Below, piece by piece: positions 142 to 19,022 of a DNA stretch of 20,000 nt. The notes beneath the pieces were generated by a model. That model made no database searches. It worked only from the letters and a program-made list of their open reading frames with translations, and was not told the DNA's origin. Positions within the stretch are counted from its first letter, which is position 1; each line of letters starts with the position of its first letter. Made by a program: the position numbers and the translations under genes. The stretch lies in assembly GCA_010093995.1 (NCBI GenBank), contig ML992510.1, positions 746,177 through 766,176 of the forward strand, written 5' to 3'. The DNA is from Elsinoe ampelina. Taxonomy: Eukaryota.

Positions 142-330
142 GCGTATATAAGCTAGGTGTACATTCTTAGCGCTATATCTATAATAAGGCCTTACGTAGA
201 GCATAATAGAGTATAGAGTTTAGGTTAATACCTATAATAGTAGCGTAAGTGTAGCGCTTTATTAAAATATATTTCCCTAGGTAAGGAGTCTACTCTTTAC
301 TCTATTTATATGTTTATATAATCTGTCTAC

Positions 331-3300
331 TTATATGCTTTATAATCCGCGCCTTTAGTAACCTTTCTTAGCTACTCTTAGCTACAACTCGTATATAGTA
401 ATTAGCTCTCTTATATTTACGTAATTCTCTTTAGGTTCCTAGCTATTAAACTTAATAGGCTAGTCCTTCTACTTTACTAAGTAGAATACCTTACTCTTTA
501 TAGTTCTCTTACCTAGGATCTTCTCTACTATCTACTTATCTACTTTGTTAGCGAGAGATATACTCTCTTCTAGCTTCTCGCTAGCTCTACCTATCTATAG
601 TTTAAGAAGAGATATATAAAAGACATTATAGATGCAATAATAACTTAGTAAAGCTAGGCGATACGCCTACGATCTAATTATATTAAGTATACGAAATAGG
701 CTAAGGAATTATAGTTCTATCTTCTTCTTTAGTATAGGTAGCTATAAGTTCTTAGCTAAGAGTAGTACTAAGTTACCTACGCTATATACCCTTAGCGTAT
801 ACTTCCTATTATAGTACTTAGCCTAGTAGGTAGAAGCCTCTTTCTATTGCTCTACTAGCTTCGTATATATGTCTTGTAAGTGTTATACTAACTCCGCTAC
901 TACTAGTACTCTTCTCTCTAAAGTTTTATCCCGAGACTTAATAGCTATTACCTCTAACTCTAGGTAGTAGCTATATATTATTTAGAAGAGGCTTATACGT
1001 AGCGTAGTATAAATGCTATTATTACTTACAAATTCTACTTATAATAGATATTTAGCCTAGTCGTTCTATAGCTCTATATAGTAGCACCTTAGGTACTATT
1101 CTAATATCTAGTTTTACTACTTAGTTTAACTATCTATCTACGGGTAAAAGGCTATACTAAGCCTACGCTTTATATGCGTTTTATAACAGAATTTACTCTA
1201 GAACTAGCTAGTAAAGACCGATCCTTAATTACTTACTATTCCTCTTAGAACACTATAATAGTAAATAACATAGTTACGTAGGATCTCTACTAGCTCTATA
1301 GATATACACTTCTTAGTAGTAGAGATATATAGTAACATCTTAGTGTAATAGTCTATAATTACTAGTACTATATTATAGACGCTACTACCTTACTTACTTA
1401 GTAGTAGATTAGTAATAAAATCTATTATAATTTCTTACTATAGGCGGTCTAGTATTAGTAGCGTACGTAGCTTACTATAGGCGTAATAGTAGCGCGCCTT
1501 ATACTTCTAGTAAACTTAGTATAACTATACGTAGTTATTAATGTCTTTTCTTATAGTTGCCTAGAAGTACTTTTATAAGAGAAGTTTAAGCGTCTTATCC
1601 TTACTAAAGTAACTAGCCTATTCGCTATTATAGTATATATATAGTACCTACGCCTTAAGTGCGCTATTATTTAGAATAACTAGTAACTCTTTATAGAAGA
1701 GAAGATTATCTTATATATTCTATAGCGCTCTACTCTTGTCTCTACTACTCCCCGCTTACGAATATAGCTTTATAAACTTAGGGTCTTATCCTTATAGTAG
1801 CTCTACTACTAATATTAGGTTAGTAGATAGATCTTTAAAGAGATTCTCTCTCGTAGTTACTATAACTATAACTCGCTAGGTCGTTATAAGCCCCTAGGAG
1901 TTCTTAGAAGAGAAGTCGCTACTATATAGCGTATAGGCAGCCTAGGCCTATTCTAGGGCAGCCTCGTATATAGTGTAGATATGTCTAATAAGCGAGGTAG
2001 CTTCCTTAACATCGGTAGTTTAGTCCTATATACGAAGCTTATTCTAAAGGGTAGAAAGGAGATATAATACCTCTTACTCTTCTACTACGTAGTTAGAGTG
2101 CCTCGAGGGTATATTAGCTAGGTTCCTTATACCTAGCTAATACTCTATTATAAAGTTAAAAGTAGTAAGGAAGGTAGCCTAGTAAGCTTATTAGCTATTT
2201 AGCTATTTTAGCTTTATAAATCCTCGGAGATTATTATAGTTAGTAAGTACTTAAATTATATATATAGCACCTTCGAGGTAGTATTACTATTGCTTAAATA
2301 CATATATAATTACTAATAACTCTTAGTTGTATGTCTCGTAGTTATACTCTACTAGGATAAACTTCCTTAACTAAAAGGCTATAGGGTACTAAGTACTATT
2401 AAATAGTTAGGACAGAATTGCTACTACTATAAACTTTAATATATCGCTTTTAATATATAAGGGTAGCGTAGGATCGTAGTAGCGGAGGATAGAGGCACGT
2501 ATAAATATGTCTCTAATGTCCTTAAATGTCTACTATTTACTTATGCCCTATACGAAAGAGCTATACTTATAACTTTTAACTAAGCCTTTAAGGAGGCTAA
2601 AGAGGAGAGTAATAATCTTAGAGTAATACTATATAAAGTAGCAGTAGAAATTTATAAAGCTAGTAAACTACTAGACTTTATAATAACTCTTCGGCCTTAG
2701 TTAATCCTTAATTGTAGTTACTCTACTTAGATCTATTAAGACGCCTATAGTAGAGATAATATAGCTAAGGAATTCTATCTCCTTAGTAAAGAATTTATAT
2801 TTCTTAAGGCTAGTATATAAAGTAAACTTCTATAGCCTCGCTAGGATCTTATATATATAATATATATAGTTCTCTCTTAAGTTACTATAGATAAGAATAT
2901 TATTAAGGTAGACGATATAGATAGTATTAACTAGTCTACCTAGCGCTTTATTAATACACGCTTAGAAGGTAGCTAGGGCGTTAGTTAATCTAAAAGGTAT
3001 AACTAAATACTTAAAATAGCTATAGTACGTATAGAATGTAGTTTTCTACTTATCGCTACGCTTAATAGAGATCCTATAGTAGGTATTTTTTAGATCTAAC
3101 TTCGAGAACTACTAGGCTTACTTAAGCTAATTAAGTATCTCGCTAATAAGTAGAAGTAGGTAGTAATTCTTAATAGTTACCTCGTTTAAGCCTTAATAAT
3201 CTATATATAAGCCTAGACTACTATCTTTCTTAGGCACGAATAGGATAGAAATACTTACCTCGCTTATAGAGTGCCTAATTTACCTATTTAATTAAGTAGT

Positions 3301-4037
3301 CTCGAGATAGTCCTTAAGCACCTTAAGCTCCTTAACTAAGAGATTATATAAGGGCTAGAATAAAGGCCTCTTACCTAGCTCTAGCTTAATTACATACTCT
3401 ACGCCTAGTAGGCGTAGTAGATTTATAATATCCTTATAGATAAAGACGTTAAAGAACTCTACGAACTTTAATAGTAGAGCTAGGTCGCCTATAGCGTAAG
3501 TGTAGTCCTTAGATAGAGTCTATACTATAGCGTATATTCTCGGCTTATTCTTAAGGTCCTTTATAAAGTCTTCTAGTTCGCATAAGTAAACTATATATAA
3601 GAAGTAGCTATATAACTAGTTATCTATAGCGCTATCTATAATTATATACTATCTTCTCCGCTATAGGCGCTCTAAAATAACTAGAGGGCCTAGTCCTAAG
3701 TCTATAGCGTAGAAGAGGCCGATTGTCTCTCTAAGGTTACTATAGAAGTCTACTAGACGTACGTAAAGCTAGTATATACCGTAGTAGAATCCGGCTTACT
3801 CTATAAAGGAGAAGATACTTAAATACTAAGTATGCTTAACTCTTAGCAGATTATAACGAAGAGTAAATACCTAAGATATAAGATTAACTTCTATATAATT
3901 GTCTATAAGAAATATATAGTCTTCGTGCCCTATAGGTACTATAATAGCGCTGTAATAGGGTAGCGATAGATAAGCGTTAATTAGAAGAGAGAAAGGGCTT
4001 AGTTATACTCTTTAGCTAAGCCCTTAGAGTTTCCTAA
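331..4037 (-). pseudogene. pol: Gypsy-1 pol (PR-RT-RH-IN-chromodomain), RIP-inactivated
   Basis: Protease LIDNYIEVN (~LIDSCAEVN) 3883-3909. RT PFRLTNALATF then YLNN (YLDD) 2899-2910. RNase H ETYN*ELL and LTNYNNL ~2190-2455. HHCC zinc finger ~1510-1640. Integrase core SN*GSVFTS and AFYP*IDS*TK ~1120-1240. GPF domain ~600-730. Chromodomain YLVK*KD*P..FNS*EP ~420-490. Protease, RT and chromodomain share one frame. Confidence 0.93.
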
Positions 4038-5207
4038 CTTAGAGTTATTAGACTTATCTACAGTAGTAACCTTATATACTACCTAAGACTCGCTATTCTT
4101 CTATAGGTGCTTCGACCTATACTTTAGCTTAATATAACTAGTTTTACTATAACTATAGTACTTAGCGTCTCTCTTCTACTTATCGGAGGAACTTCTCTAA
4201 CTACTAAACTATTTAATAGGTAGGTTAGTAGCTTCGCGCTTATAGTAAGCTTAAGAGCTACTACTGGACTAGTAGTAGTATTCTCCTCGGGGGCTACTAC
4301 GACTACTATACTTATATAGGTAGTTACTTTTATCTTCTCGTATAGTACGCTTACTACTAGTATAGTCTATAGACTCGATACGTAAGTCTAAAGAGACTAA
4401 CTTCTAGCGTATAGCTAGAATAGTATAGTGTTTAATAATAGTAGTACGTAGCGTAGGCTATAGCTTAGTAAGGAGATAGTATACTCTCTACTCTTTAGAG
4501 TAGAGAGCTAGTTACTCCTCGAGGGTAGCGAGTTCCGAGGCGAAGGCCTAGATAGATTAGCCCTTACGTTATTAGGCTCCCTTATATATAAGAGTTATAT
4601 GCACTTTATAATTAATAGAGTTATTAACTATGTCCTATATAAACTAGCAAAATTACTCCTACGTGTAGCTCTCTAGGCTATCTACGTAGTAGTAGTAATA
4701 CTATATCTTATCTAGCTCGCTAGCGAGGAATATAACTCTATATAGTACCTTCTACTAATTAGTAGAGTAAGCCTTAAGAGCTAGAGTAAAGATAACCTCG
4801 AGATTCTTTAGGAAGAATCTTACCTCTTTAAGTATCTTACCCTAATAGGGATAAGGTTCCCTTAGTTAAGGTTATCTAGAGGATAGTCTTATAAATAGTC
4901 TACCGCTACTATATATGCTCTATATACTAGCGTTACTTACTATAGGCTTAGTAGAAGTACGCGAGCTACGGTCGAAGCCTCCTTAGTAGTATCCTACATT
5001 ACATATATAGTGTATTTACTTAATCTCTTCCTTAAGGCTCTAAGCCTTAAGCTCTAGCTCTAAATACTTACGCTTAGTATATAGGCGTAGTAGCTACTCT
5101 ATAAGGGTCTCTTCTTTCTCTAGGGGAGTCTACTTAATAGAGTCTATTTCTATAACATTAATAACGTAAGGTACTAGCGCCTTACTAATAGAGTTCTAGT
5201 TATCTAT
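3999..5207 (-). pseudogene. gag: Gypsy-1 gag, RIP-inactivated (start approximate)
   Basis: CCHC knuckle YYSYSKTSYIKLKY (~CYSCGKTGHIKPEC) at ~4119-4160. Candidate start ATA(<ATG) at 5207 is in the same frame, and the stop is at 3999-4001. Confidence 0.75.
4029..4035 (-). promoter_or_regulatory. -1 ribosomal frameshift heptamer A GGA AAC (probably G GGA AAC before RIP)
   Basis: Phased X XXY YYZ in the gag frame, and the protease codons lie in the -1 frame. Confidence 0.7.
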
Positions 5208-6422: not shown

Positions 6423-9400
6423 ATACTCTAGCTATAGATCTTGCCTCCGTATAGCTAGGAGTATCTAAAGGAGGTCCGCTACTAAGCTAACTAAGGATAG
6501 ACATTTACCTTAGTTAGGAAGGTAGAGCTCTATCTACTAATTACGTAGCTATGTCTCTTATAGATTTAGAGGCTAATATTTATTTTATTAACTACTATTA
6601 CGTAAAGGAGAAAGAAGTTTACCTATGTACTAATAGTATAACGAGAGTAAAGTCCCTTAACTAGTATAAGATACACTTATATAGATACTACTATCTTATA
6701 GTAGAAGCTACTAACTACTATAGCGTTATAAAGGAAGTTTAATAGCACTTCGAGTCGGTAGAGATAAAGAGATATAACTTAGTACTAGGCTAGATATAGC
6801 TCTTTAGTATTAACCTAAACATCGATTAGTAAAGCTAGAGGTAGAGACATTACTCTACTAGCGTTAATATAACGCTCCTAATAGCGGAAGAATTTGCTAA
6901 GGAAATGTTAGAGTAGCTATAGTGCTATATAGTTTTCTTAAATATAATCTATAAAGATAATGCTTTAACGTTATAAAGTAGACTCCTAAGCTAGCTCTAT
7001 AACTTCTTAGATATATTCGATAATAAGGAAGCTATTACTATACTCTCTCTAGCGCTATATAACTACTTAATCGAACTTATTAAAGGGAAGTAACCTCTAT
7101 AGAGACCTATTTACGCCCTTGTAGAGACGGAGCTAAGTACTCTTAGAGAGTACCTAGCTAAGAATTTAAAGCTAGGCTATATTTGCTACTCTACTAGCCC
7201 TATAGAGGCTTTTATCCTCTTTATGCCTAAGGCTAATAAGTCGCTACGTCTCTACGTCGACTACTAAGGTCTTAATAACGTCTTAGTAAAGAACTACTAC
7301 TCTTTGCCCCTTATTACTAAGATACTCGATAGAATCTAGGGGGCTAAAGTATACTTAAAAATAGATCTAAGGGACGTATATTACTATATCTAGATTAAGG
7401 GGAGCGACGAATAGAAGATAGCGTTCCGATATAGATATAGACATTTTAAATACATAGTTATACCTTTTAGCCTTATAAACGCTCCTACTACCTTCTAGTT
7501 ATATATTAGCTAATACCTCGATAGCTTAGTTAATTACTACTATATCGTCTATATAGACGATATTCTTATCTACTCCTAAGATCTATCGTAGTACTATAGG
7601 CATATTAAAGAAGTTCTAGCGTAACTTAGAAAGTATCTTCTTTTTATAAAGGCTTCTAAGTACGCCTTTAAAGTTAAGAAAGTATAGTTTCTAGAATATA
7701 TTCTAGGCCCTAAGAGCGTCTCGATAAAGCTCTAGAGAGTTTAAGCTATCGTAGACTAGCTAGAACCTACTTCTCTAAAAGAACTCTAGATCTTTCTTAG
7801 ATTTATAAACTTTTACTAATAGTTTATTAATAGCTACGTAGAGATAATAAGACCTATAACGTAACTACTTATAGAGAGTAAAAATAGAAAATAGGTAGGT
7901 CCTTTCTACTTTACTAATAGTGCTAGGCAATTATTCTAACATCTTAAAGATTACTTTATAACTGCTTCCCTCCTATAGTTTTTTAATAAAAGTAAGAATA
8001 TAAGAATATATACTAACTCCTCTAGATTTGCTATCTCTAGAATTGCTATATAACTATTTAGCAACGGTAGAGAGAAGGCAGTCTAATAGTACTCTATTAT
8101 GTACTATTTACGGAAACTATAGAGAGTAGAGTTAAACTAGCTTACGTATAACTAAGAGCTACTTACTATCCTCGAGGTAGCGCGCTACTAGTAGTAGTAT
8201 CTCTTCTCTATTTCTTCTACTACTACTATGTTTATAGATTATAATAACCTAAAATACTTCTTAACAACTAAGACGCTCTTAGCTTAATAGGCCTATATTA
8301 GTAAAGAGCTATTATAATATAATATCTAGATTACCTATAACCTAGAGAAGCTTAATTCTACTAATAGACTATTAAGGAGGCTAGACCTAGATACTAGAGA
8401 TAAGTAAGCTAAGGTAGACTTACACCTATAGGTCCTAAGAGACTTATATAAGAGGCTAGAGAGACATCTTCTCCTTAACGCTATAATAGTAGCTAAGTAA
8501 GTTAAGTTAACCTAAGACATATAAGGTAAGATACTAGATATAAACTTAGTAGTTACCGAGGACTCCTTACCGAGATAGTATAGCGAGGTAGAGTATACTA
8601 GGAGATCTAAAGATACCTAAGAGAGTATTATAGCCTAAGGCGAGATACTAGACATAGATATAGAAGCTAAGATAGCTCTCTATAAGGGTAGAGATAGTAG
8701 GTCTACTCCCTTAGAGGTAAGTAGTTCCTTTTACTATTCCCCGTAGATAACTATAGTAGAGAAATTATAGAAAGATTATAGAGAACTTACTAGCTCTAGA
8801 CGTCTATATACAATAGCTACGAAAGAAGACAATACGTATAAAGAGGCATTACCGAGGCTACTTAGCCTAGTAAAGAGACTATAGCGGCGAGATACTATAG
8901 TAGAGATAATACTAAAGCGTCTTAGCGATCCTAAAGAAAAGGAGACTACTAAGAGAGAGAGCTAGAGATAGTAAAACAATAGCGTTCTACTATTCTAAGA
9001 TAAAGTCTTTATCCTAGCTATAAAAATACTAACTACGGAGATACTCTATAGAAATTATAATAATCTAATAGTAGGCTACCTCGGAATAGAAAAGATACTC
9101 TTCGTACTAAAGTAGAAGTACTATTAGAAGGGCATAACGATAGACGTTACTAGATACGTAAATTACTATAATAAGTGCTAAAGAATAAAGGTTCCTCGAT
9201 ATTAGCCCTATAGTAAAATATAGGCTCTAAGATTACCCCCTATTAGAGAAGTACTCTAGTATTAGTTAATAGACTTTATTACTAATTTACCTCTAGCGAA
9301 GGACTAATAGAGCTCCGTTACTAATTTAATTTTAGTACTAGTAGATAAAGTATCTAAATATATTAGATATATTCTAGTAAGAAAAGATATAGAGGCCCGA

Positions 9401-10369
9401 GAGTTAGCCGACATTATAGAGAAAGAGATCCTTAGTTACTATAGGTTCCTAAGAAGCTAGATTACTAATAGGGGTACTTTATTTAAGTCTAAATTTTAGA
9501 CGTTTCTCTACTAGAGATAGAAGGTCTAGAGATACCTCTTAATAGCGTTCTACCCTTAAACTAATAGCGCTATAGAGAGATAGAACTAGATAATCGAATA
9601 GTACCTAAGGGTGTTTATTAATTTCTACTAAGATAACTAGCTATACTAGCTATATTAGGCCGAGTTTGCCTATAATAGCTTCTATAGCGCGTCGCTAGGG
9701 GTAAGCCTACTCTACTATATTTATAGAATAGTTCTATATCTCCCTAATAATATTAAGGCTAACGCTATAGAGAAGAAGGTAGCTCTATAACTACTAGAAG
9801 CACTAGTAGTAGAAGTAAGAGTAAAGGCTCTATAAGACATAAGAGAAGAACTTAAGTAGTATAGGCTTAATGCTATTACGTAGTAGGAGGTATACTATAA
9901 TAAGAAGCACTAGCTAATAAGGTTTAAGAAAGGCTAAGAAGTTATACTAAGTACTAAGAACCTCTAGTCTCTCCGGCTAAAGAAGAAGCTAGTAGCGAAG
10001 TTTATAGGTCTATTTACCGTCGCTAAGACAGTAGGCTACTAAGTATACTAACTTAACCTTCTAGTATATATAAAATCGATCTACTTAATCTTTTACATAT
10101 CTCTCTTTAAGGCTTATTAACGAGGCAATAATATTACTCTACTACTAGTAGAGATTAAGAGGGAAGAAGAATACAAAGTTAAAGAGATAGTTAATAAGAG
10201 CCTTATTAGAGGTAAGACTTACTATAAGGTACTCTAGAAAGGCTATCCTAAAGAGGAAGCTAGCTAAGAGCTAATAGAGCATCTACGGAATACTATTAGC
10301 AAAATTAAGAACTTTAAAAAGAAAAGCCTTATTCTAAGCGTAATAGCGAAGTAACGCTATATTAAGTAA
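6413..10369 (+). pseudogene. pol: Gypsy-2 pol (PR-RT-RH-IN-chromodomain), RIP-inactivated
   Basis: Protease LIDLEAN (~LIDSGAD) ~6557-6577. RT YIDD 7550-7561. RNase H YTNSSRFAI ~8010 and IDYNNLKYF ~8235. HHCC ~9053-9181. IDFITNLP ~9269, ITNRGTLF ~9461, AFYP*TNSAIER*N ~9545-9586. KFIGLFT ~10000. Chromodomain EEEYKVKEI...YKVL*KGYPKEEAS*EL 10163-10290. Confidence 0.94.
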
Positions 10370-10459
10370 GAGGCTTATAAGGCTTAAAGAGCTTAAACTT
10401 ACGCTATAGAGAAAGAGAGAGGTAAGAGAATAGCATAAGATTAAGATTTAAAAAACAGA

Positions 10460-11079
10460 TTATAAGAGGTCTATCTTAACCTTATTCTCTAAATCTTTAG
10501 GCTTATCTAGCTCTACTAGCTTAAGGACAAGATTACTATATAGAGACTCTATTATATCTTTATTAGACTTCTAAATATAGATAGTAGTATTAAAGGCATG
10601 CTAAGTTAAAATAAGACTCTTAATAAGTAGAGTATAAGAGATATTATACTACTATAGGTTAGCTATTATAGCGACGATATAGAATAAAAACATATAAAGA
10701 CATATTTAGTATAGAAGTAGTAATAGAGGCAGTAGCGGAGGAAAGTACCTACGTCGTTATTATAAATATATTAGGACTAAGCCTACTTATAGTTAAGGTA
10801 TATAGTAGTCTAGCGGTAAATATAAGACTTACACTAATAGTAGTACACCGGCGTAGCGTAGTTAGAAGGGGTCTAGAACTATAGGAACTTAGGCTTAGGA
10901 CTCTTACTATAGTTATAGTTATAGTTACTAGAGGAGTCTCTACCGAATCTAAGATAGTATATTACCCCTGTAATAACATTAGTAATCTCTAGAGACTTAA
11001 AGGACATAGCGTAGCTAGAGTTATTAATCTAATTAGTAGGGACATAGTAGGTTATAATACTATAGAATTCTAATATTAT
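10460..11079 (-). pseudogene. Antisense cargo gene B: intron-containing Cys6 (Zn-cluster-like) protein relic
   Basis: In-frame ATG at 11007, with a possible RIPped ATG at 11079. Tyr/Cys spacing x2-x20-x11-x2-x6 at 10842-10702, one Cys still intact. Intron 10695-10649 (ATATGT<GTATGT, GCTAAC, TAG) restores a nearly open exon 2 ending TAA 10462-10460. Confidence 0.68.
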
Positions 11080-11100
11080 AGTGTAAAAGTTAAGCGGATA

Positions 11101-11184
11101 GAGAGAATAAGAAGTCTAAGGAGATTAAGGAGAAAGAGAGAGAAGATAGTATATATATGTCGCTTCTCTATTGTCTAAACAATA
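11101..11184 (-). promoter_or_regulatory. Putative promoter of cargo gene B
   Basis: TATTGTctaaACAATA inverted pair 11169-11184, TATATATA 11150-11158, then a CT-rich tract (minus strand) leading to the ORF. Confidence 0.55.
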
Positions 11185-11480
11185 ATACTCTTCTTAATAA
11201 TATCTACCTTAATAATAGACCCTTAATAATATAATAATACCTAAGGGGATAATAGGCCCCGATAAAGAAGCAAGAGCAATCTAAGAGCTATAGCTTCGCT
11301 AGGGGCTATAAAATAAAAGACTTAGGCAAAAAGAAGAAGTAGAAAGCAAAAAACTCTATAAACTCTAAAAGGCAAAATCTATCTCTAATAGCTCTAAGCT
11401 ATTATATCGACTAAGAAACTTATACTTATACCTAGAAACCTAAATACTATACTAGTAACTACTCTAACTCCCTAAATCTC

Positions 11481-12166
11481 TTAAGCTCTACCGGTAGTAC
11501 TACTAGAGGCCGATATAGTAGCGTAAGCAAAAGCCTTCCTAGTAAGCTAGGCGCTAATAATCTTTACTAATAACTCGTTAGTCTTTTAGCTACTAGTAAG
11601 TAAGGTAGCGAAGTCCTTATAGGTTATAGATAGATCGTTATCGAAGTTAAATTCTTCTCTCTTTCTCTTCTTCTTAGTAGAAATATATTTAGCCTTAAGA
11701 GTAGTAATGTATCTCGCTATTATAGTATAGGCGTCGTAAACATACTACTTATTAGCTAGTATAGCGTCTAACTCCTTATCCTTATCGGTATAACGATAGG
11801 CGTAGATAGCCTTATAAGTAACTCTAGTAGCCTTAAGTTTATTACTATAGCGCTTAAGGAACTAGGAGTATTAGTATCGCTCTAATAGAGAATAGATATT
11901 AAACCTATAAAGGCATAGCTATTATAGTAGAGCTAGTAGAGCTAGTAGGAGGCATAATTATTCTACTCCTTATAGTAGTAGAGGTCGTTAGTAAAGTTAA
12001 TATTATTCGATATTATATATTTAATAGCGAGCTTAAGGTAGTTAATATAAGGGCCCTCTATAATAAGAACAATATTAGCGTAACTAGGAGACAATAGCGA
12101 AGTATCTTCGCGCTAGATCTAGCTATAGTTAGGTCTACTAGAGGTAGTACTTACTAGAGAAGACAT
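11481..12166 (-). pseudogene. Antisense cargo gene A: intron-containing Cys6 (Zn-cluster-like) protein relic, ~212 aa, with NLS-like KKKRKR
   Basis: Intact ATG TCT at 12166. Tyr spacing x2-x20-x9-x2-x6 at 12049-11915. A 47-nt intron 11908-11862 (ATAGGT<GTAGGT, CTAAT<CTAAC, TAG) corrects the frame. Exon 2 has only three RIP-type stops in ~126 codons. Confidence 0.72.
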
Positions 12167-12279
12167 ATTAAAAGAAGGTTCCTAATAGCGGAGAAAGAAT
12201 AATAAGACGTTAGAGAGATACTAGGAGATATTAGTATAGAATATAAGGTAGAGAGTAGAGAGCTATACTTTAGTAAAAG

Positions 12280-12374
12280 AGTTTTTAGAAGAAAGAGAAG
12301 AGATATTCTAACAAGGGAGAAGCCTTATATATATATTAAAGCGTTCTATTGTCTTATTATTATAGACAATAGAA
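12280..12374 (-). promoter_or_regulatory. Putative promoter of cargo gene A
   Basis: Perfect 11-bp inverted repeat TTCTATTGTCT (12344-12354) / AGACAATAGAA (12364-12374), TATATATATAT 12326-12336, then a CT-rich tract on the minus strand. Confidence 0.58.
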
Positions 12375-12668
12375 GGCTCCTATACTAATTAAGAGAAAAA
12401 GAATACGAGAAGAAATAAGGTAGCCTACTAATTATTATTATAGCTAGCATAATAGTAGCTAGAAAATAAAGAAATAACGTTGTTATATATACTAGGTAAG
12501 GTAAATTTATATATAAAGTTAAGTAGAGCTACACTTTATATTTCTTACCTAATACTAAGACTCTATAAACGGACCTTCGTATATAGCGTAATAACGCTCC
12601 GAAGGTAGTCTACTCTTTCTCTACTACTAGAGGGTTTTAATAAGGGACTAGCCTAAGGATAGGCCTAT

Positions 12669-12683
12669 AGAGAAAAAGACAAT
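12669..12683 (+). other. Polypurine tract of Gypsy-2
   Basis: AGAGAAAAAGACAAT immediately before the LTR start. Confidence 0.7.
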
Positions 12684-12891
12684 TATAATAGGAACTATAA
12701 ACTTATAACTAGTAGATAGACGTCGGAGATACGTTACTCTAGCTACGATCCTATATAGTATATATAGTAGTTCCTAACCTTCTATAGAGAGGTTAGGAAT
12801 TTATCGTTGTATTTATATAGTATATACTTCTCCTCTATTACTCCTCTGTCTTAGAGACATTATACCTGCCCTATCTAGATACTCTATTATA
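12684..12891 (+). repeat. Gypsy-2 3' LTR (208 bp)
   Basis: 8-bp terminal inverted repeats TATAATAG...CTATTATA (<TGTAACGG...CCGTTACA), preceded by a PPT. Internal TATA and 10-bp hairpin. Gypsy-3 pol resumes at 12892. Confidence 0.75.
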
Positions 12892-14909
12892 GTAAGGCTA
12901 TATAACTACTCTATCTTCGGGTACTTATAGACTAAAGCGCCGTCCTACTACTCTAGTATAGAGGCCTCTATTATTGTTATATTCTTTAAATAATCTAGCT
13001 ATCGGCTAAGAGCGTCTACTCTACTGTTCTTTAATCCCTTAATATAGTAGATCTAAAAGTTATAGCTTATAAGTGTTTCTAACTATCGAACCTATTATCT
13101 ATTAAGAACCTTAGTTATTATCTAATATAGAAGGTTCTTATAGTCGGTATAGACTTATACTAGTAAGGTTGTCTCTTCTAGGTATACTTTCTATTTATAG
13201 AATACTTCTATAATTATAAGTAGTTCCTTATTATATATATCGTAGTTAAGTTTAGGTCTAGTTATCTTTTGTAAGTAGTATACGATCGAGTAGTGTCGTT
13301 CCTTAGTATCTTTCTACGCTAGATACGCTTCTATTATAAAGTCTAAGGCATCTATTTCTAGTAGTACTTATCGGTCTAGATCGAAGAGTACTAGGATAAG
13401 TACTATTATAAGCCTAAGCTTTAGCTCCTTAAAGGCCTACCTATATCTCTTATTAAATATAAAGCTAGTCTCTTTCTTCGTAAGGTTAGATATTAGTATA
13501 ACTACTTTAGAGAATCCCTTAATAAACTTATAGTAGTAGTTAAAGAATCCTAGTAGTACTTAGACCTCCTTAACTATAGTAGGTTCTAGCTAGTTATTTA
13601 CTAATTTGATCTTCTTTAGATTAGGTCTAATACTATTAGTAGATATAATATAGTTTAGAAATTATATCTTATACTTATAGAACTTATACTTAGAGAGTTT
13701 TACTAGTAGGTCTTTCTCTTTTAGTTTCTATAGTACTTTATAAATATGTCCTATATGTTTATTATACATCTTTAAGAAGATAATAATATTATCTAAATAT
13801 ACTAAGATAAAGTTATTAAGGTATTCTTATAGAGTGTTATTAATTAACTCTTAGAAGGTTATAGAAGTATTAGTTAACCTAAAGAGTATAACGAGGTACT
13901 TATATAAACTCTATTACGTCCTAAAAGCCGTTTTCTACTCCTTACTCTCCTTTATTTATACTTAATAATAGACATCCCTAATATTAATTATAGTAAACTA
14001 TTTAGCTCTAAGTAGTTAGTCTTAAAGTTTATTAATCCTTAGTAGAGGATAGTAATTCTTCCTAGTAAGTATATTAAGTTTCTAGTAATTAATATATATT
14101 TATAATGTTTTATCTTTTTTAGGTGTAAAAAGCACTCTATATATAATAGGTAATTTTAATAGTTATATAAATCCTTTAAGTAAGTACTTATCGATATAGT
14201 TCTTAAGAATATTCTTCTCTTATTTCGATAGTAGTATAAGACCTTAATAGTGTATTAGAGATTTATTCTCTTCGAAAGGTATTTTGTAATTCTATAGTCT
14301 ATATTAGAGTAAGGCTATAATATCTTTCCTTTCTTTAAATAAGTTCTTAAAGTCTTTATATTCTAGCGAAAGTACTTAATCGCTTATACTAGTAATAGCC
14401 CTAACTATTAGTTATACCTATACTATCCTTATAGTTAGTATCTATAGAGCCGATTATACTCCCTATATCTTATAATTATACTTAGGAAATTCGAGTGTTT
14501 CTTTAATCTAATCTATGTCTAGATTATATTACTAAAGCTAGTCTATACTAAGTACTATATTATACTATATATCTACTATATCGATCGATTGTTTTTCTAT
14601 ATATGTTTCGATTTTAATTATAACATTTTGTAGTTCCTAAGTAACTTTCCTATTCTTTCTTATAGGGGTTCTATCTACTATAGTAAGTAGGTAAAGTAAC
14701 TCCTTCTAATGTTAATAAGGTTTAAGCTAATTAGTAACTATTATAGAGACGTAGCTATAGTTAGCTCCTAAGTCTATTATTACTCTTACCTTATTTCCTT
14801 ATATTTAGACTTCTAGTATAAAGTAATTTAATATATAGATCTTTATTATATTAAGGCTTTAGCTAGTATTATTGTCTTACCTTATTAGGTAATAACTAGC
14901 TAGTTTTTT
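12892..14909 (-). pseudogene. pol: Gypsy-3 pol (PR-RT-RH), truncated before integrase
   Basis: Protease IIDLGAN (~MIDSGAN) ~14760-14780. RT YLDN (YLDD) 13788-13799. RNase H end KGLKNSRVDALSR*LDY ~12990-13040. Confidence 0.92.
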
Positions 14910-16998: not shown

Positions 16999-17566
16999 TG
17001 TTATAAACCGTCTAAATATAGTCTATACTAGTAGTCTAAGCTAAGCTAAGAACGAGGTAGTTCTACTTCTATAGTAGTATAGCACTAAGGTAAGAGTTAG
17101 AGAAGGTATNNNNNNNNNNAATATAGTCTATACTAGTAGTCTAAGCTAAGCTAAGAACGAGGTAGTTCTACTTCTATAGTAGTATAGCACTAAGGTAAGA
17201 GTTAGAGAAGGTATATCTTATAGATAATAAAGTATAATTAGATAGTATTATAAAGGGCAGCCTTAGTAATACTAGTATTTACTATCTAGACAAGGTTAAC
17301 TACGGTACTTATATAAGGTAAGGACTATTTCTATATATATATACTTTAACCTACGTACTCTATATACTCTATACGCTCTATAGCGAGAGTTGTAATAAGT
17401 ATAGAGCGCTTAGCTATTCCTAACCCGCGCGCTCTATAGCTTTAGGGGTAGAGCTACTAGAGAAGATAGAGAACTAAGTAAATGTTAGGCTAGGTTACGT
17501 AATAACCTTAGTAGTTTAATTAGTCCTAACGTCCCTACGTTCTAGCTGTCCTACTAGTTCGTAACA
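16999..17566 (-). repeat. Gypsy-3 5' LTR (463 bp after removing gap artefact)
   Basis: Ends TGTTATAAAC...GTTCGTAACA (10-bp inverted repeat allowing RIP). Homologous to 18560-19022. Confidence 0.92.
17110..17119. other. Assembly gap flanked by an exact 95-bp overlap (17015-17109 = 17120-17214)
   Basis: Ten N. Removing the gap and one copy gives 463 bp, the length of the sister LTR. Confidence 0.93.
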
Positions 17567-18559: not shown

Positions 18560-19022
18560 TATTACGAACTATCTAAACATAGCCTACGCTAGTAGTCTAA
18601 GCTAAGCTAAGAACGAGGTAGTTCTACTTCTATAGTAGTATAGCACTAAGGTAAGAGTTAGAGAAGGTATGTCTTATAGATAATAAAGTACAATTAGATA
18701 GTATTATAAAGGCTAGCCTTAGTAATACTAGTGTTTGCTATCTAGACAAGGTTAACTATAGTACTTATATAAGGTAAGGACTATCCCTATATATATATGT
18801 TCTTTATTGTGTTCTTTATATACTCTATATACTCTATAGTAAGAGTCGGAAGTAACATAGAGTATATGTCTACTAGTAACCTATACGCTTTATAGTTTTA
18901 GAAGTAGAGCCGCTAGAGAAGATAGAGAACCGAGTAAATATTAGGCTAGGTTACGTAATAATCTTAGTAGCTTAATTAGTCCTAACGTCCCTATATTCTA
19001 GCTGTTCTACTAGTTTATAACA
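18560..19022 (-). repeat. Gypsy-4 3' LTR (463 bp)
   Basis: TATTACGAAC...GTTTATAACA, colinear with the Gypsy-3 LTR. Confidence 0.92.

Follow-up and report, generated by a model that had tools for sequence, protein, structure and literature searches.

The brtn gene of Boty-like retrotransposons was reportedly called antisense in the title of a paper by Zhao et al. in 2011 (Virology 417:248). Passages of two other papers describe it as an additional open reading frame (ORF) lying antisense in the Boty-like (BcGypsy1) elements of Botrytis cinerea (PMC8365987, PMC4227169), and a transcript of Monilinia is mentioned in a passage of a third as resembling BRTN (PMC5987419). In plants, the retrotransposons Grande, RIRE2, and Retand carry antisense ORFs between pol and the 3' long terminal repeat (LTR); according to the parts of the source consulted, these ORFs occur in most copies of a lineage, and a nuclear or DNA-binding regulatory role has been proposed for them, with their function unestablished (PMC11963269). 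The same parts present HBZ of human T-cell leukemia virus type 1 (HTLV-1) and APH-2 of HTLV-2 as nuclear regulators encoded close to the 3' LTR and antisense to gag-pol (PMC11963269). Here, a stretch of 20,000 nucleotides (nt) of the Elsinoe ampelina genome (GenBank assembly GCA_010093995.1, contig ML992510.1, positions 746,177 to 766,176 of the forward strand; hereafter, the window) was analyzed. A Ty3/Gypsy chromovirus in the window carries two minus-strand relics, genes A and B, between pol and its polypurine tract, and these are probably what repeat-induced point mutation (RIP) has left of two paralogous antisense accessory genes encoding six-cysteine (Cys6) proteins.

Genes A and B resemble brtn in being extra antisense genes of a fungal Gypsy chromovirus. 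The comparison with brtn is one of description, and the passages describing brtn do not mention a tandem pair (PMC8365987, PMC4227169). The antisense ORFs of Grande, RIRE2, and Retand share both position and strand with A and B. However, they belong to plant lineages that are not chromoviruses, and a TRP28 domain (PF04195) is present in Retand (PMC11963269), whereas the group to which the window element is assigned below encodes a Cys6 cluster protein without a Pfam family. A conserved antisense intron is among the features that define that group, and the word "intron" does not occur in the main text of the plant source (PMC11963269). With HBZ and APH-2, the likeness is an analogy of layout only, since the sequences and hosts are unrelated. 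No Cys6 or zinc-cluster antisense gene of a fungal LTR element is described in the full-text literature searched, which leaves subscription journals largely outside, and none was found in a term search of a survey of fungal LTR elements (PMC3248453).

The window is extremely RIP-mutated fungal DNA, with a GC content of about 0.31 across its 20 kb, a TpA/ApT index of about 2, and a (CpA+TpG)/(ApC+GpT) index of 0.10 to 0.22. Trp codons number 0 to 1 per frame, Tyr accounts for about 9.5% of the codons in all six frames, and a single ORF reaches 80 codons when read from stop to stop. The chromovirus lies on the plus strand, with reverse transcriptase (RT) motifs at 7253 and 7550. The translation of its integrase-chromodomain part matches 281 proteins at E values of ≤1e-5 (best, 5.5e-59), and RT, RNase H, integrase, and chromodomain families are present in every match listed. 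No LTR pair of the element was found, either in the raw letters or in a purine/pyrimidine (transition-blind) alphabet. The spacer from the end of pol to the polypurine-tract-like run, put at 2.3 kb in the first-pass annotation of this DNA, measures about 2.05 kb (10346 to 12390).

Table 1. Window coordinates of the proposed antisense gene relics and of the features that bound them
Feature	Position	Strand	Details
Chromovirus pol 3' end, chromodomain	10163..10345	+	Left limit of spacer; from motif positions; chromodomain about 10163-10320, pol end near 10345
Gene B exon 2 relic	10460..10648	-	62 codons (10648-10463), 2 internal stops; stop codon 10462-10460
Gene B intron relic	10649..10695 (10695-10649)	-	47 nt: ATATGT...GCTAAC branch point...TAG acceptor
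Gene B exon 1 relic	10696..11007 (11007-10696)	-	104 codons, 7 stops
Gene A exon 2 relic	11480..11861	-	126 codons (11861-11483), 3 internal stops; stop codon 11482-11480
Gene A intron relic	11862..11908 (11908-11862)	-	47 nt: ATAGGT...ACTAAT branch point...TAG acceptor
Gene A exon 1 relic	11909..12166 (12166-11909)	-	86 codons, 5 in-frame stops
Polypurine-tract-like run	12391-12420	+	Right limit of internal region; read directly

The first-pass annotation had proposed two minus-strand gene models inside 10460 to 12374, and all of its structural statements on them were reproduced from the sequence (Table 1). The pair occupies 10460 to 12166 on the minus strand, between the end of pol and the polypurine-tract-like run, which are the place and strand of the intron-bearing antisense Cys6 group. 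In gene A, the six cluster positions are codons 40, 43, 64, 74, 77, and 84, all of which are now TAY (Tyr), with a spacing of x2-x20-x9-x2-x6 followed by Ala-Phe. In gene B, they are Tyr56, Cys59 (still TGT), Tyr80, Tyr92, Tyr95, and Tyr102, with a spacing of x2-x20-x11-x2-x6 followed by Val-Phe. The scaffold C-x2-C...C-x2-C-x5-7-C of the group is thus present in A and B only if these Tyr residues are former Cys residues. Both genes have a phase-0 donor at a distance of exactly 6 nt from the sixth position, a short intron containing a CTRAY branch point, and a reading frame that continues beyond it; in gene B, the frame resumes after the 47-nt intron, and an alternative intron of 44 nt ends at 10652. 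Before RIP, the donor of gene A would have read GTAGGT and that of gene B GTATGT. The bases at 11908 and 10695 are both A preceded by T, and an A in this context is the RIP product of TpG, which makes the change of the donors from GT to AT plausible. In the original state, each gene would have comprised a first exon with a C-x2-C-x20-C-x9/11-C-x2-C-x6-C cluster, a short phase-0 intron exactly two codons past the sixth Cys, and a fast-evolving second exon; under RIP, TAY would then have replaced most of the TGY codons, stops would have arisen from Trp and Gln codons, and the donor would have changed from GT to AT. The window copy cannot make a protein because of its RIP stops, TAY codons, and lost donors, and it is a dead relic with no function of its own. 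No Pfam family was found for any candidate frame of the spacer on either strand, a word-indexed protein search with gene A exon 2 returned 203 candidates with none at an E value of ≤10, and no homologue of gene B exon 2 was found.

Intact counterparts with real Cys residues are present in related elements. Among 78 non-RIPped chromovirus loci from metagenome contigs (L numbers below), fetched with an alignment of 20 pol matches, nine have an open Cys6 ORF antisense to pol: L007, L010, L017, L020, L027, L040, L047, L048, and L055. Eight of these ORFs clearly lie downstream of pol, that of L048 being the uncertain case. In L027, L040, L047, and L055, the spacing is the canonical C-x2-C-x6-C-x8-11-C-x2-C-x6-C, and there is no intron. 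In the other five, a canonical phase-0 donor lies exactly 6 nt past the sixth Cys, as follows: L007 (GTAGGT; intron of 44 nt), L010 (GTGAGC; 47 nt), L017 (GTGAGT; 46 nt), L020 (GTAAGT; 79 nt), and L048 (GTGAGT; 67 nt). Their introns have CTRAY-type branch points and are followed by 66 to 147 open codons past the junction. L048 combines the canonical Cys6 spacing with the same-position intron, and the pre-RIP donor proposed for gene A is the same hexamer as that of L007. On alignment, no conservation was found among the second exons of the intact relatives. The DNA signature consisting of C-x2-C-x5-8-C-x2 followed directly by GTRNGY occurs eight times in the 655 kb of the loci, with eight occurrences on the minus strand and none on the plus strand; five are clear members, and the other three are in L028 (inside pol) and in L067 (two sites). 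The sole plus-strand Cys match outside pol consists of gag-type knuckles in L015, in which a sense ORF of 917 residues with gag-type CCHC knuckles runs from 5379 onward on the plus strand, downstream of pol, and probably belongs to an adjacent or nested element. In L007, L017, and L020, the first 107 to 155 nt of the contig repeat the last 107 to 155 nt at 99% to 100% identity, and these contigs represent a repeated element assembled in circularly permuted form; with the permutation of L017 taken into account, its Cys6 gene is placed about 0.6 kb downstream of pol. In L007 and L020, the repeats at the contig ends are likewise assembly overlaps and not mapped LTRs, and spacer lengths measured from them were dropped.

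Across all six frames of the window, the strict six-position pattern is matched twice, at A and at B, compared with a mean of 0.013 occurrences per 20 kb in 300 second-order Markov shuffles, none of which contained two. The loose pattern is matched 12 times in the window, compared with 1.8 times in the shuffles, and the half-motif [YC]x2[YC]x6[YC] is found at 72 sites; because both are so common, Tyr spacing is weak evidence by itself. The intact relatives predict that A and B, as members of the antisense group, should have a donor 6 nt after the sixth position. An intron test, defined by a donor-like hexamer at +6 nt (a G-to-A change of its first base being allowed), a CTRAY branch point, and a YAG acceptor within 40 to 90 nt, was passed at 2 of the 72 half-motif sites, which are exactly A and B. 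Intron-like structures occur at 0.0011 per position in the window, which corresponds to about 0.08 expected among 72 sites. Alignment of A with B from the fourth cluster position (C4) to the intron end gives a z value of 4.4, and none of 300 shuffles reached the score in raw or transition-collapsed letters. At 17 of the 27 unselected exon positions (C4 to the donor, with pattern-defining codons excluded), the two genes are identical. Control half-motif pairs share 7.9 positions on average (standard deviation, 2.6), 17 being reached by 0.04% of 2,389 pairs, and no other half-motif site shares more than 14 with A or B. No A-B similarity was found in the introns alone or in the second exons. The first-pass annotation had called the genes an old paralog pair without obvious nucleotide similarity; the second part of this statement has to be amended, since local similarity extends from C4 through the donor, and the first part, that A and B are paralogs, is supported by the excess of identical positions. 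The alternative that spacing and intron-like strings arose without any gene, in DNA with about 10% Tyr codons, draws on the uniformly high Tyr content of every frame, on the frequency of the half-motif and the loose pattern, on the definition of the pattern only after it had been seen, and on the absence of any sequence homologue of A or B from the searches made. However, chance would have to produce the strict pattern twice, to place introns at the position predicted by the relatives at A and B and nowhere else among the 72 sites, to give an A-B identity above that of 99.96% of the control pairs, and to put both genes at the location and on the strand observed in the relatives. A chance origin is therefore disfavoured and is considered very improbable.

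The pol gene of the window element provides a calibration for the effect of RIP on codons, based on the columns at which 90% or more of 20 intact relatives agree. Of the six columns with conserved Cys, five read Tyr in the window and one still reads Cys, and conserved His reads Tyr at 9 of 13, while conserved Tyr is still Tyr at 19 of 21. Stops have replaced conserved Trp at 11 of 13 columns and conserved Gln at 11 of 12, and conserved Glu reads Lys at 4 of 13. The ratio of Tyr to Cys in gene B (5 Tyr, 1 Cys) equals that at the six conserved pol Cys columns, so A (6 Tyr) and B both have the appearance of a real Cys cluster after this degree of RIP. Together with the Cys residues at matching positions in intact relatives and the TGT at codon 59 of gene B, this indirectly supports the earlier proposal that the Tyr residues of the clusters were once Cys. 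The remarks of the first-pass annotation on a nuclear localization signal in A and an acidic tail in B, by comparison, rest on RIP-altered residues, as the Glu-to-Lys changes in pol illustrate.

The window element is multicopy, and its copies have been mutated by RIP independently. In total, 675 contig pieces of a DNA run from the same organism cover 30 of the 30 bins of 10300 to 12700, with the reservation that contig depth is not copy number; presence in most element copies, which is a feature of antisense accessory ORFs, is thus found here as well. The differences between copies are almost all transitions (A>G, 63; G>A, 63; C>T, 56; T>C, 49). Copy-level readings come from 40 of 241 variant sites, of which none falls on a donor site and one (10832) falls on the defining base of a proposed Cys codon. 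Codon 59 of gene B, the second cluster position, is TGT in the window and TAT in most copies (depth, 2540/2866). Codon 78 of gene A is TAG in the window and AAG in most copies, and codon 96 of gene B is TAC in the window and TAA in most copies. Three contigs join 10938 to 12228/12232, skipping about 1.29 kb that comprises gene A and the 5' part of gene B, and may reflect a deletion carried by some genomic copies. In a freshwater metagenome run, two contigs of 151 nt nearly identical to the window and one piece of 41 nt were found, on which no claim about habitat is based. No run listed as containing this stretch is recorded as RNA, and two candidate RNA runs contributed no contig pieces to it, which has no bearing on whether it is expressed.

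A FastTree phylogeny of pol was built from 41 loci and the window, with the 37 loci lacking a pol ORF of at least 800 residues left out. The window pol pairs with L010 (support, 87) on a long branch (1.85) of odd composition, and both fall into a set of seven rows (support, 98) that comprises the window, L010, L017, L001, L034, L002, and L003; the next clade is made up of L007 and L020. When L010 exon 1 was used as the query of an exhaustive HMMER search, 33 representative clusters (P numbers) were recovered at an E value of ≤0.001, from which P0121, P0141, P0144, and P0152 (repetitive multi-stretch matches) and P0130 and P0134 (fragments) were set aside. The named members come from five Pleosporales genomes (Lentithecium fluviatile, Ophiobolus disseminans, Phaeosphaeriaceae sp. 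PMI808, Lophiostoma macrostomum, and Decorospora gaudefroyi), where they are annotated as hypothetical proteins and occur in several copies per genome, and no Botrytis protein is present among the members of the 20 clusters looked up. Proteins of this L010 family are 140 to 400 amino acids long and share the cluster C-x2-C-x17-30-C-xRxNxFGxC-x2-C-x6-7-C, of which the six Cys residues are invariant or at least 90% conserved in 27 to 30 sequences. Also conserved are an N-terminal block, PIPDxVYxLPxxLxPQPxLxRxWC, and, after the junction, the exon-2 blocks PEFRRAxNIL, ARQxSxEHNxxRY, and EKRWYYYG. No Pfam domain was found in six full-length members. Three open metagenome ORFs, P0122, P0123, and P0124, are 64% to 82% identical to L010 exon 1 (L010:7266-7529) and read Tyr at C3, C4, or C2 of L010, with Asp-to-Asn, Glu-to-Lys, and His-to-Tyr changes; they look like lightly RIP-mutated intermediates. 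The annotated Lophiostoma-type products P0148 and P0145 are longer by about 19 residues, inserted precisely where the intron lies, and these look like an intron retained in frame in the gene model.

A series of observations, given in this and the next two paragraphs, weighs against the interpretation of A and B as antisense Cys6 genes. With respect to Tyr, the 41 window Tyr residues at conserved pol columns derive from Tyr in 19 cases, His in 9, Cys in 5, and Arg in 3, and because Tyr also comes from His and true Tyr, a single Tyr in the window is not by itself a former Cys. One exon-2 Tyr of gene A is CGT in two contigs, and the copy-level evidence for Cys, from the 40 of 241 variant sites listed, covers 1 of the 12 proposed positions. 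With respect to coding, a scan for stop depletion does not discriminate, since the true pol frame scores below several frames without known coding. Across from both first exons, the plus strand has frames that are no less open than those of A and B, and the purine excess of pol (GC and AT skew) continues on the plus strand through the spacer. The most open frames of the region, 10672-11175 (3 stops in 168 codons) and 11903-12385 (4 stops in 161 codons), likewise fit a third sense ORF after pol, of which the minus-strand features would be by-products. However, these frames are the codon-for-codon complement of the Tyr-rich minus-strand frames and are open for that reason. Moreover, a Pfam match is absent for the plus-strand frames of the spacer, the splice signals fit the minus strand only, the Cys6-plus-donor signature in the 78 relatives is confined to the minus strand, and no conserved open sense ORF was seen in the spacers of L007, L010, and L020. 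Coding on the plus strand is regarded as extremely unlikely.

The relationship of A and B to the intact genes is one of architecture. No CxxC...CxxC ORF was found in L001, L002, L003, and L034, which belong to the same tree set as the window, so the antisense Cys6 gene is not universal in this set. In a RIP-aware scan of the window for the conserved blocks of L010, none exceeded the maxima obtained from 100 shuffles; in anchored scoring on the non-Cys columns, A ranked 3rd and B 15th among the 72 half-motif sites, which lends A weak support and B none; and hmmsearch with the family profile gave no window match at an E value of <10. Among the 78 loci, the same profile matches only L010, with L007 marginal (E = 0.086). 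By these comparisons, A and B cannot be recognized as belonging to the L010 subfamily. The first-pass annotation had suggested tblastn as a way to unmutated homologues: architectural counterparts do exist in 9 of the 78 loci, but tblastn with the exons of A and B (A1, A2, B1, and B2) gave nothing below an E value of 1 against these loci. No residue-level similarity of A or B to a member of the group was found, and such similarity does not define the wider group. Between intact subfamilies themselves, hhalign gave probabilities of ≤1.2% in four of four comparisons, and because the intact subfamilies show no sequence match, homology across them rests on the scaffold, the intron position, the place, and the strand. 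In addition, a second Cys6 gene was not seen in any intact relative, which would suit the possibility that only A was a working gene and that B is a decayed partial duplicate that never functioned. The restriction of A-B similarity to the segment from C4 to the donor, the lower rank of B on the non-Cys columns, the presence over B exon 1 of a less interrupted minus-strand frame (3 stops in 128 codons, compared with 7 in 104), and the deletion joint seen in three contigs are consistent with such a duplicate. Gene B nevertheless keeps all six positions, the Phe, an intron complete with its branch point and acceptor, and a frame that continues for 62 codons with 2 stops, its depth across element copies is similar to that of A, and many stops are expected after RIP in any Gln- or Trp-rich frame. 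A pseudo-copy is therefore considered unlikely, and two former genes remain the preferred interpretation. Short coiled-coil-like ORFs were observed 3' of the Cys6 second exon on the minus strand of L007 (6102..5905), L020 (3864..3682), and L048 (550..77) and could be further exons or separate small genes.

The consensus spacing of the Zn(2)-Cys(6) domain of Gal4 and Leu3 (PF00172) is C-x2-C-x6-C-x5-12-C-x2-C-x6-8-C. The antisense family shares with it six Cys residues, the C-x2-C and C-x2-C-x6-8-C halves, the full canonical spacing in L027, L040, L047, L048, and L055, and, in the family model, predicted helices after the cluster. It differs in the loop between C2 and C3, which has 17 to 30 residues (20 in A and B of the window) compared with 6, and in its Pfam Zn_clus scores, which at 17.5 (L047), 14.6 (L040), and 10.5 bits (L027) are below the 21-bit cutoff; no candidate frame of the window matches Zn_clus. 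Unlike typical zinc-cluster factors, the family proteins are short, are encoded by retrotransposons, and have no large regulatory domain (no other Pfam match). A structural model of the full-length member P0147, with a predicted template modeling score of 0.70 and a predicted local distance difference test (pLDDT) score of 83 to 97 over residues 40 to 170, has a compact Cys module followed by two long helices. Foldseek found no match to it at an E value of ≤0.001, and its best VIA Z, 4.7, was to generic helical hairpins. The model of the Cys module of P0136 (mean pLDDT, 79.8) was compared with 48,161 chains, of which four reached a Z of ≥2. Two of the four are Zn2Cys6 domains, namely Leu3 (2er8_A; Z, 2.2; root mean square deviation [rmsd], 1.8 Å over 37 residues) and Gal4 (1aw6; Z, 2.1; rmsd, 2.5 Å over 40 residues). 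These Z values are low, Foldseek found no match for this module at an E value of ≤0.001, and PDB sequence searches returned nothing relevant, so that the modeled likeness to Leu3 and Gal4 is a weak pointer to Zn2Cys6 in particular. Furthermore, the segment that is basic in Gal4-type domains is the one replaced by the long C2-C3 loop, which makes DNA binding of the Gal4 type doubtful. The loop length, the subthreshold or absent Pfam scores (the latter in the L010 subfamily), the low structural Z values, and the frequent derivation of window Tyr from His would also agree with two real genes whose cluster is not a Zn2Cys6 site but another metal site, a set of disulfides, or one in which some residues are His or Tyr. 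This is judged quite improbable given the conservation of all six Cys residues across the family, the canonical second half (C-x2-C-x6-7-C), the full canonical spacing with the same intron in L048, and the two Zn2Cys6 domains among four structural matches. The zinc-cluster-like variant with a long first loop proposed in the first-pass annotation is thus supported for the family, by the L010 spacing, the canonical spacing of sister elements, L048, and the Leu3 and Gal4 fold matches.

In an intact element, the antisense gene would be transcribed from its own promoter against the genomic RNA of the element, and the intron would be read only on the antisense transcript, which would explain how it survives retrotransposition. 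The product would be a small zinc-cluster protein, Zn2Cys6-like with a long C2-C3 insertion and followed by helices, as the models suggest. By analogy with the antisense proteins of Grande and Retand and with brtn of Boty, it may act in the nucleus on the expression of the element or on the control of the element by the host. More speculatively, the family might represent an old, fast-evolving antisense regulator derived from Zn2Cys6 proteins and acting on the LTR promoter or on host silencing, in which different element lineages stretched the loop from 6 to as many as 30 residues and A and B formed a cooperating pair, with brtn perhaps as one branch; this extended scenario is put forward tentatively and is judged unlikely.

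Other repeats were observed in the window. A second RIP-mutated Gypsy pol occupies 200-4400 on the minus strand, with an RT motif near 2925 and a relic frame at 4002..2704, and a third RT-like relic lies at 13194-14314 on the minus strand, with a stop-poor frame at 13826..13194. The segments 13837-14129 of the third relic and 2948-3240 of the second match at 81% in the purine/pyrimidine alphabet. A dispersed direct repeat (16999-17566 and 18560-19022) is 86% to 93% identical in raw letters and 97% to 100% identical after transitions are collapsed, which indicates that its copies diverged mainly by RIP.

LTR retrotransposons seldom carry accessory genes, those that exist are little understood, and brtn is the sole named fungal case in the literature searched. 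Several fungal chromovirus lineages keep a small antisense Cys6 gene with an intron at a fixed position, which has no Pfam entry and is annotated in public genomes only as a hypothetical protein. The sequences evolve too quickly to be recovered by ordinary searches, so that the constant intron position together with the Cys scaffold can serve as a search key, and this architecture can recover gene relics even from fully RIP-mutated DNA when nonmutated relatives predict the intron position. The antisense Cys6 gene is a concrete candidate for an element-encoded regulator, and the findings point to a little-known accessory gene family of fungal retrotransposons.

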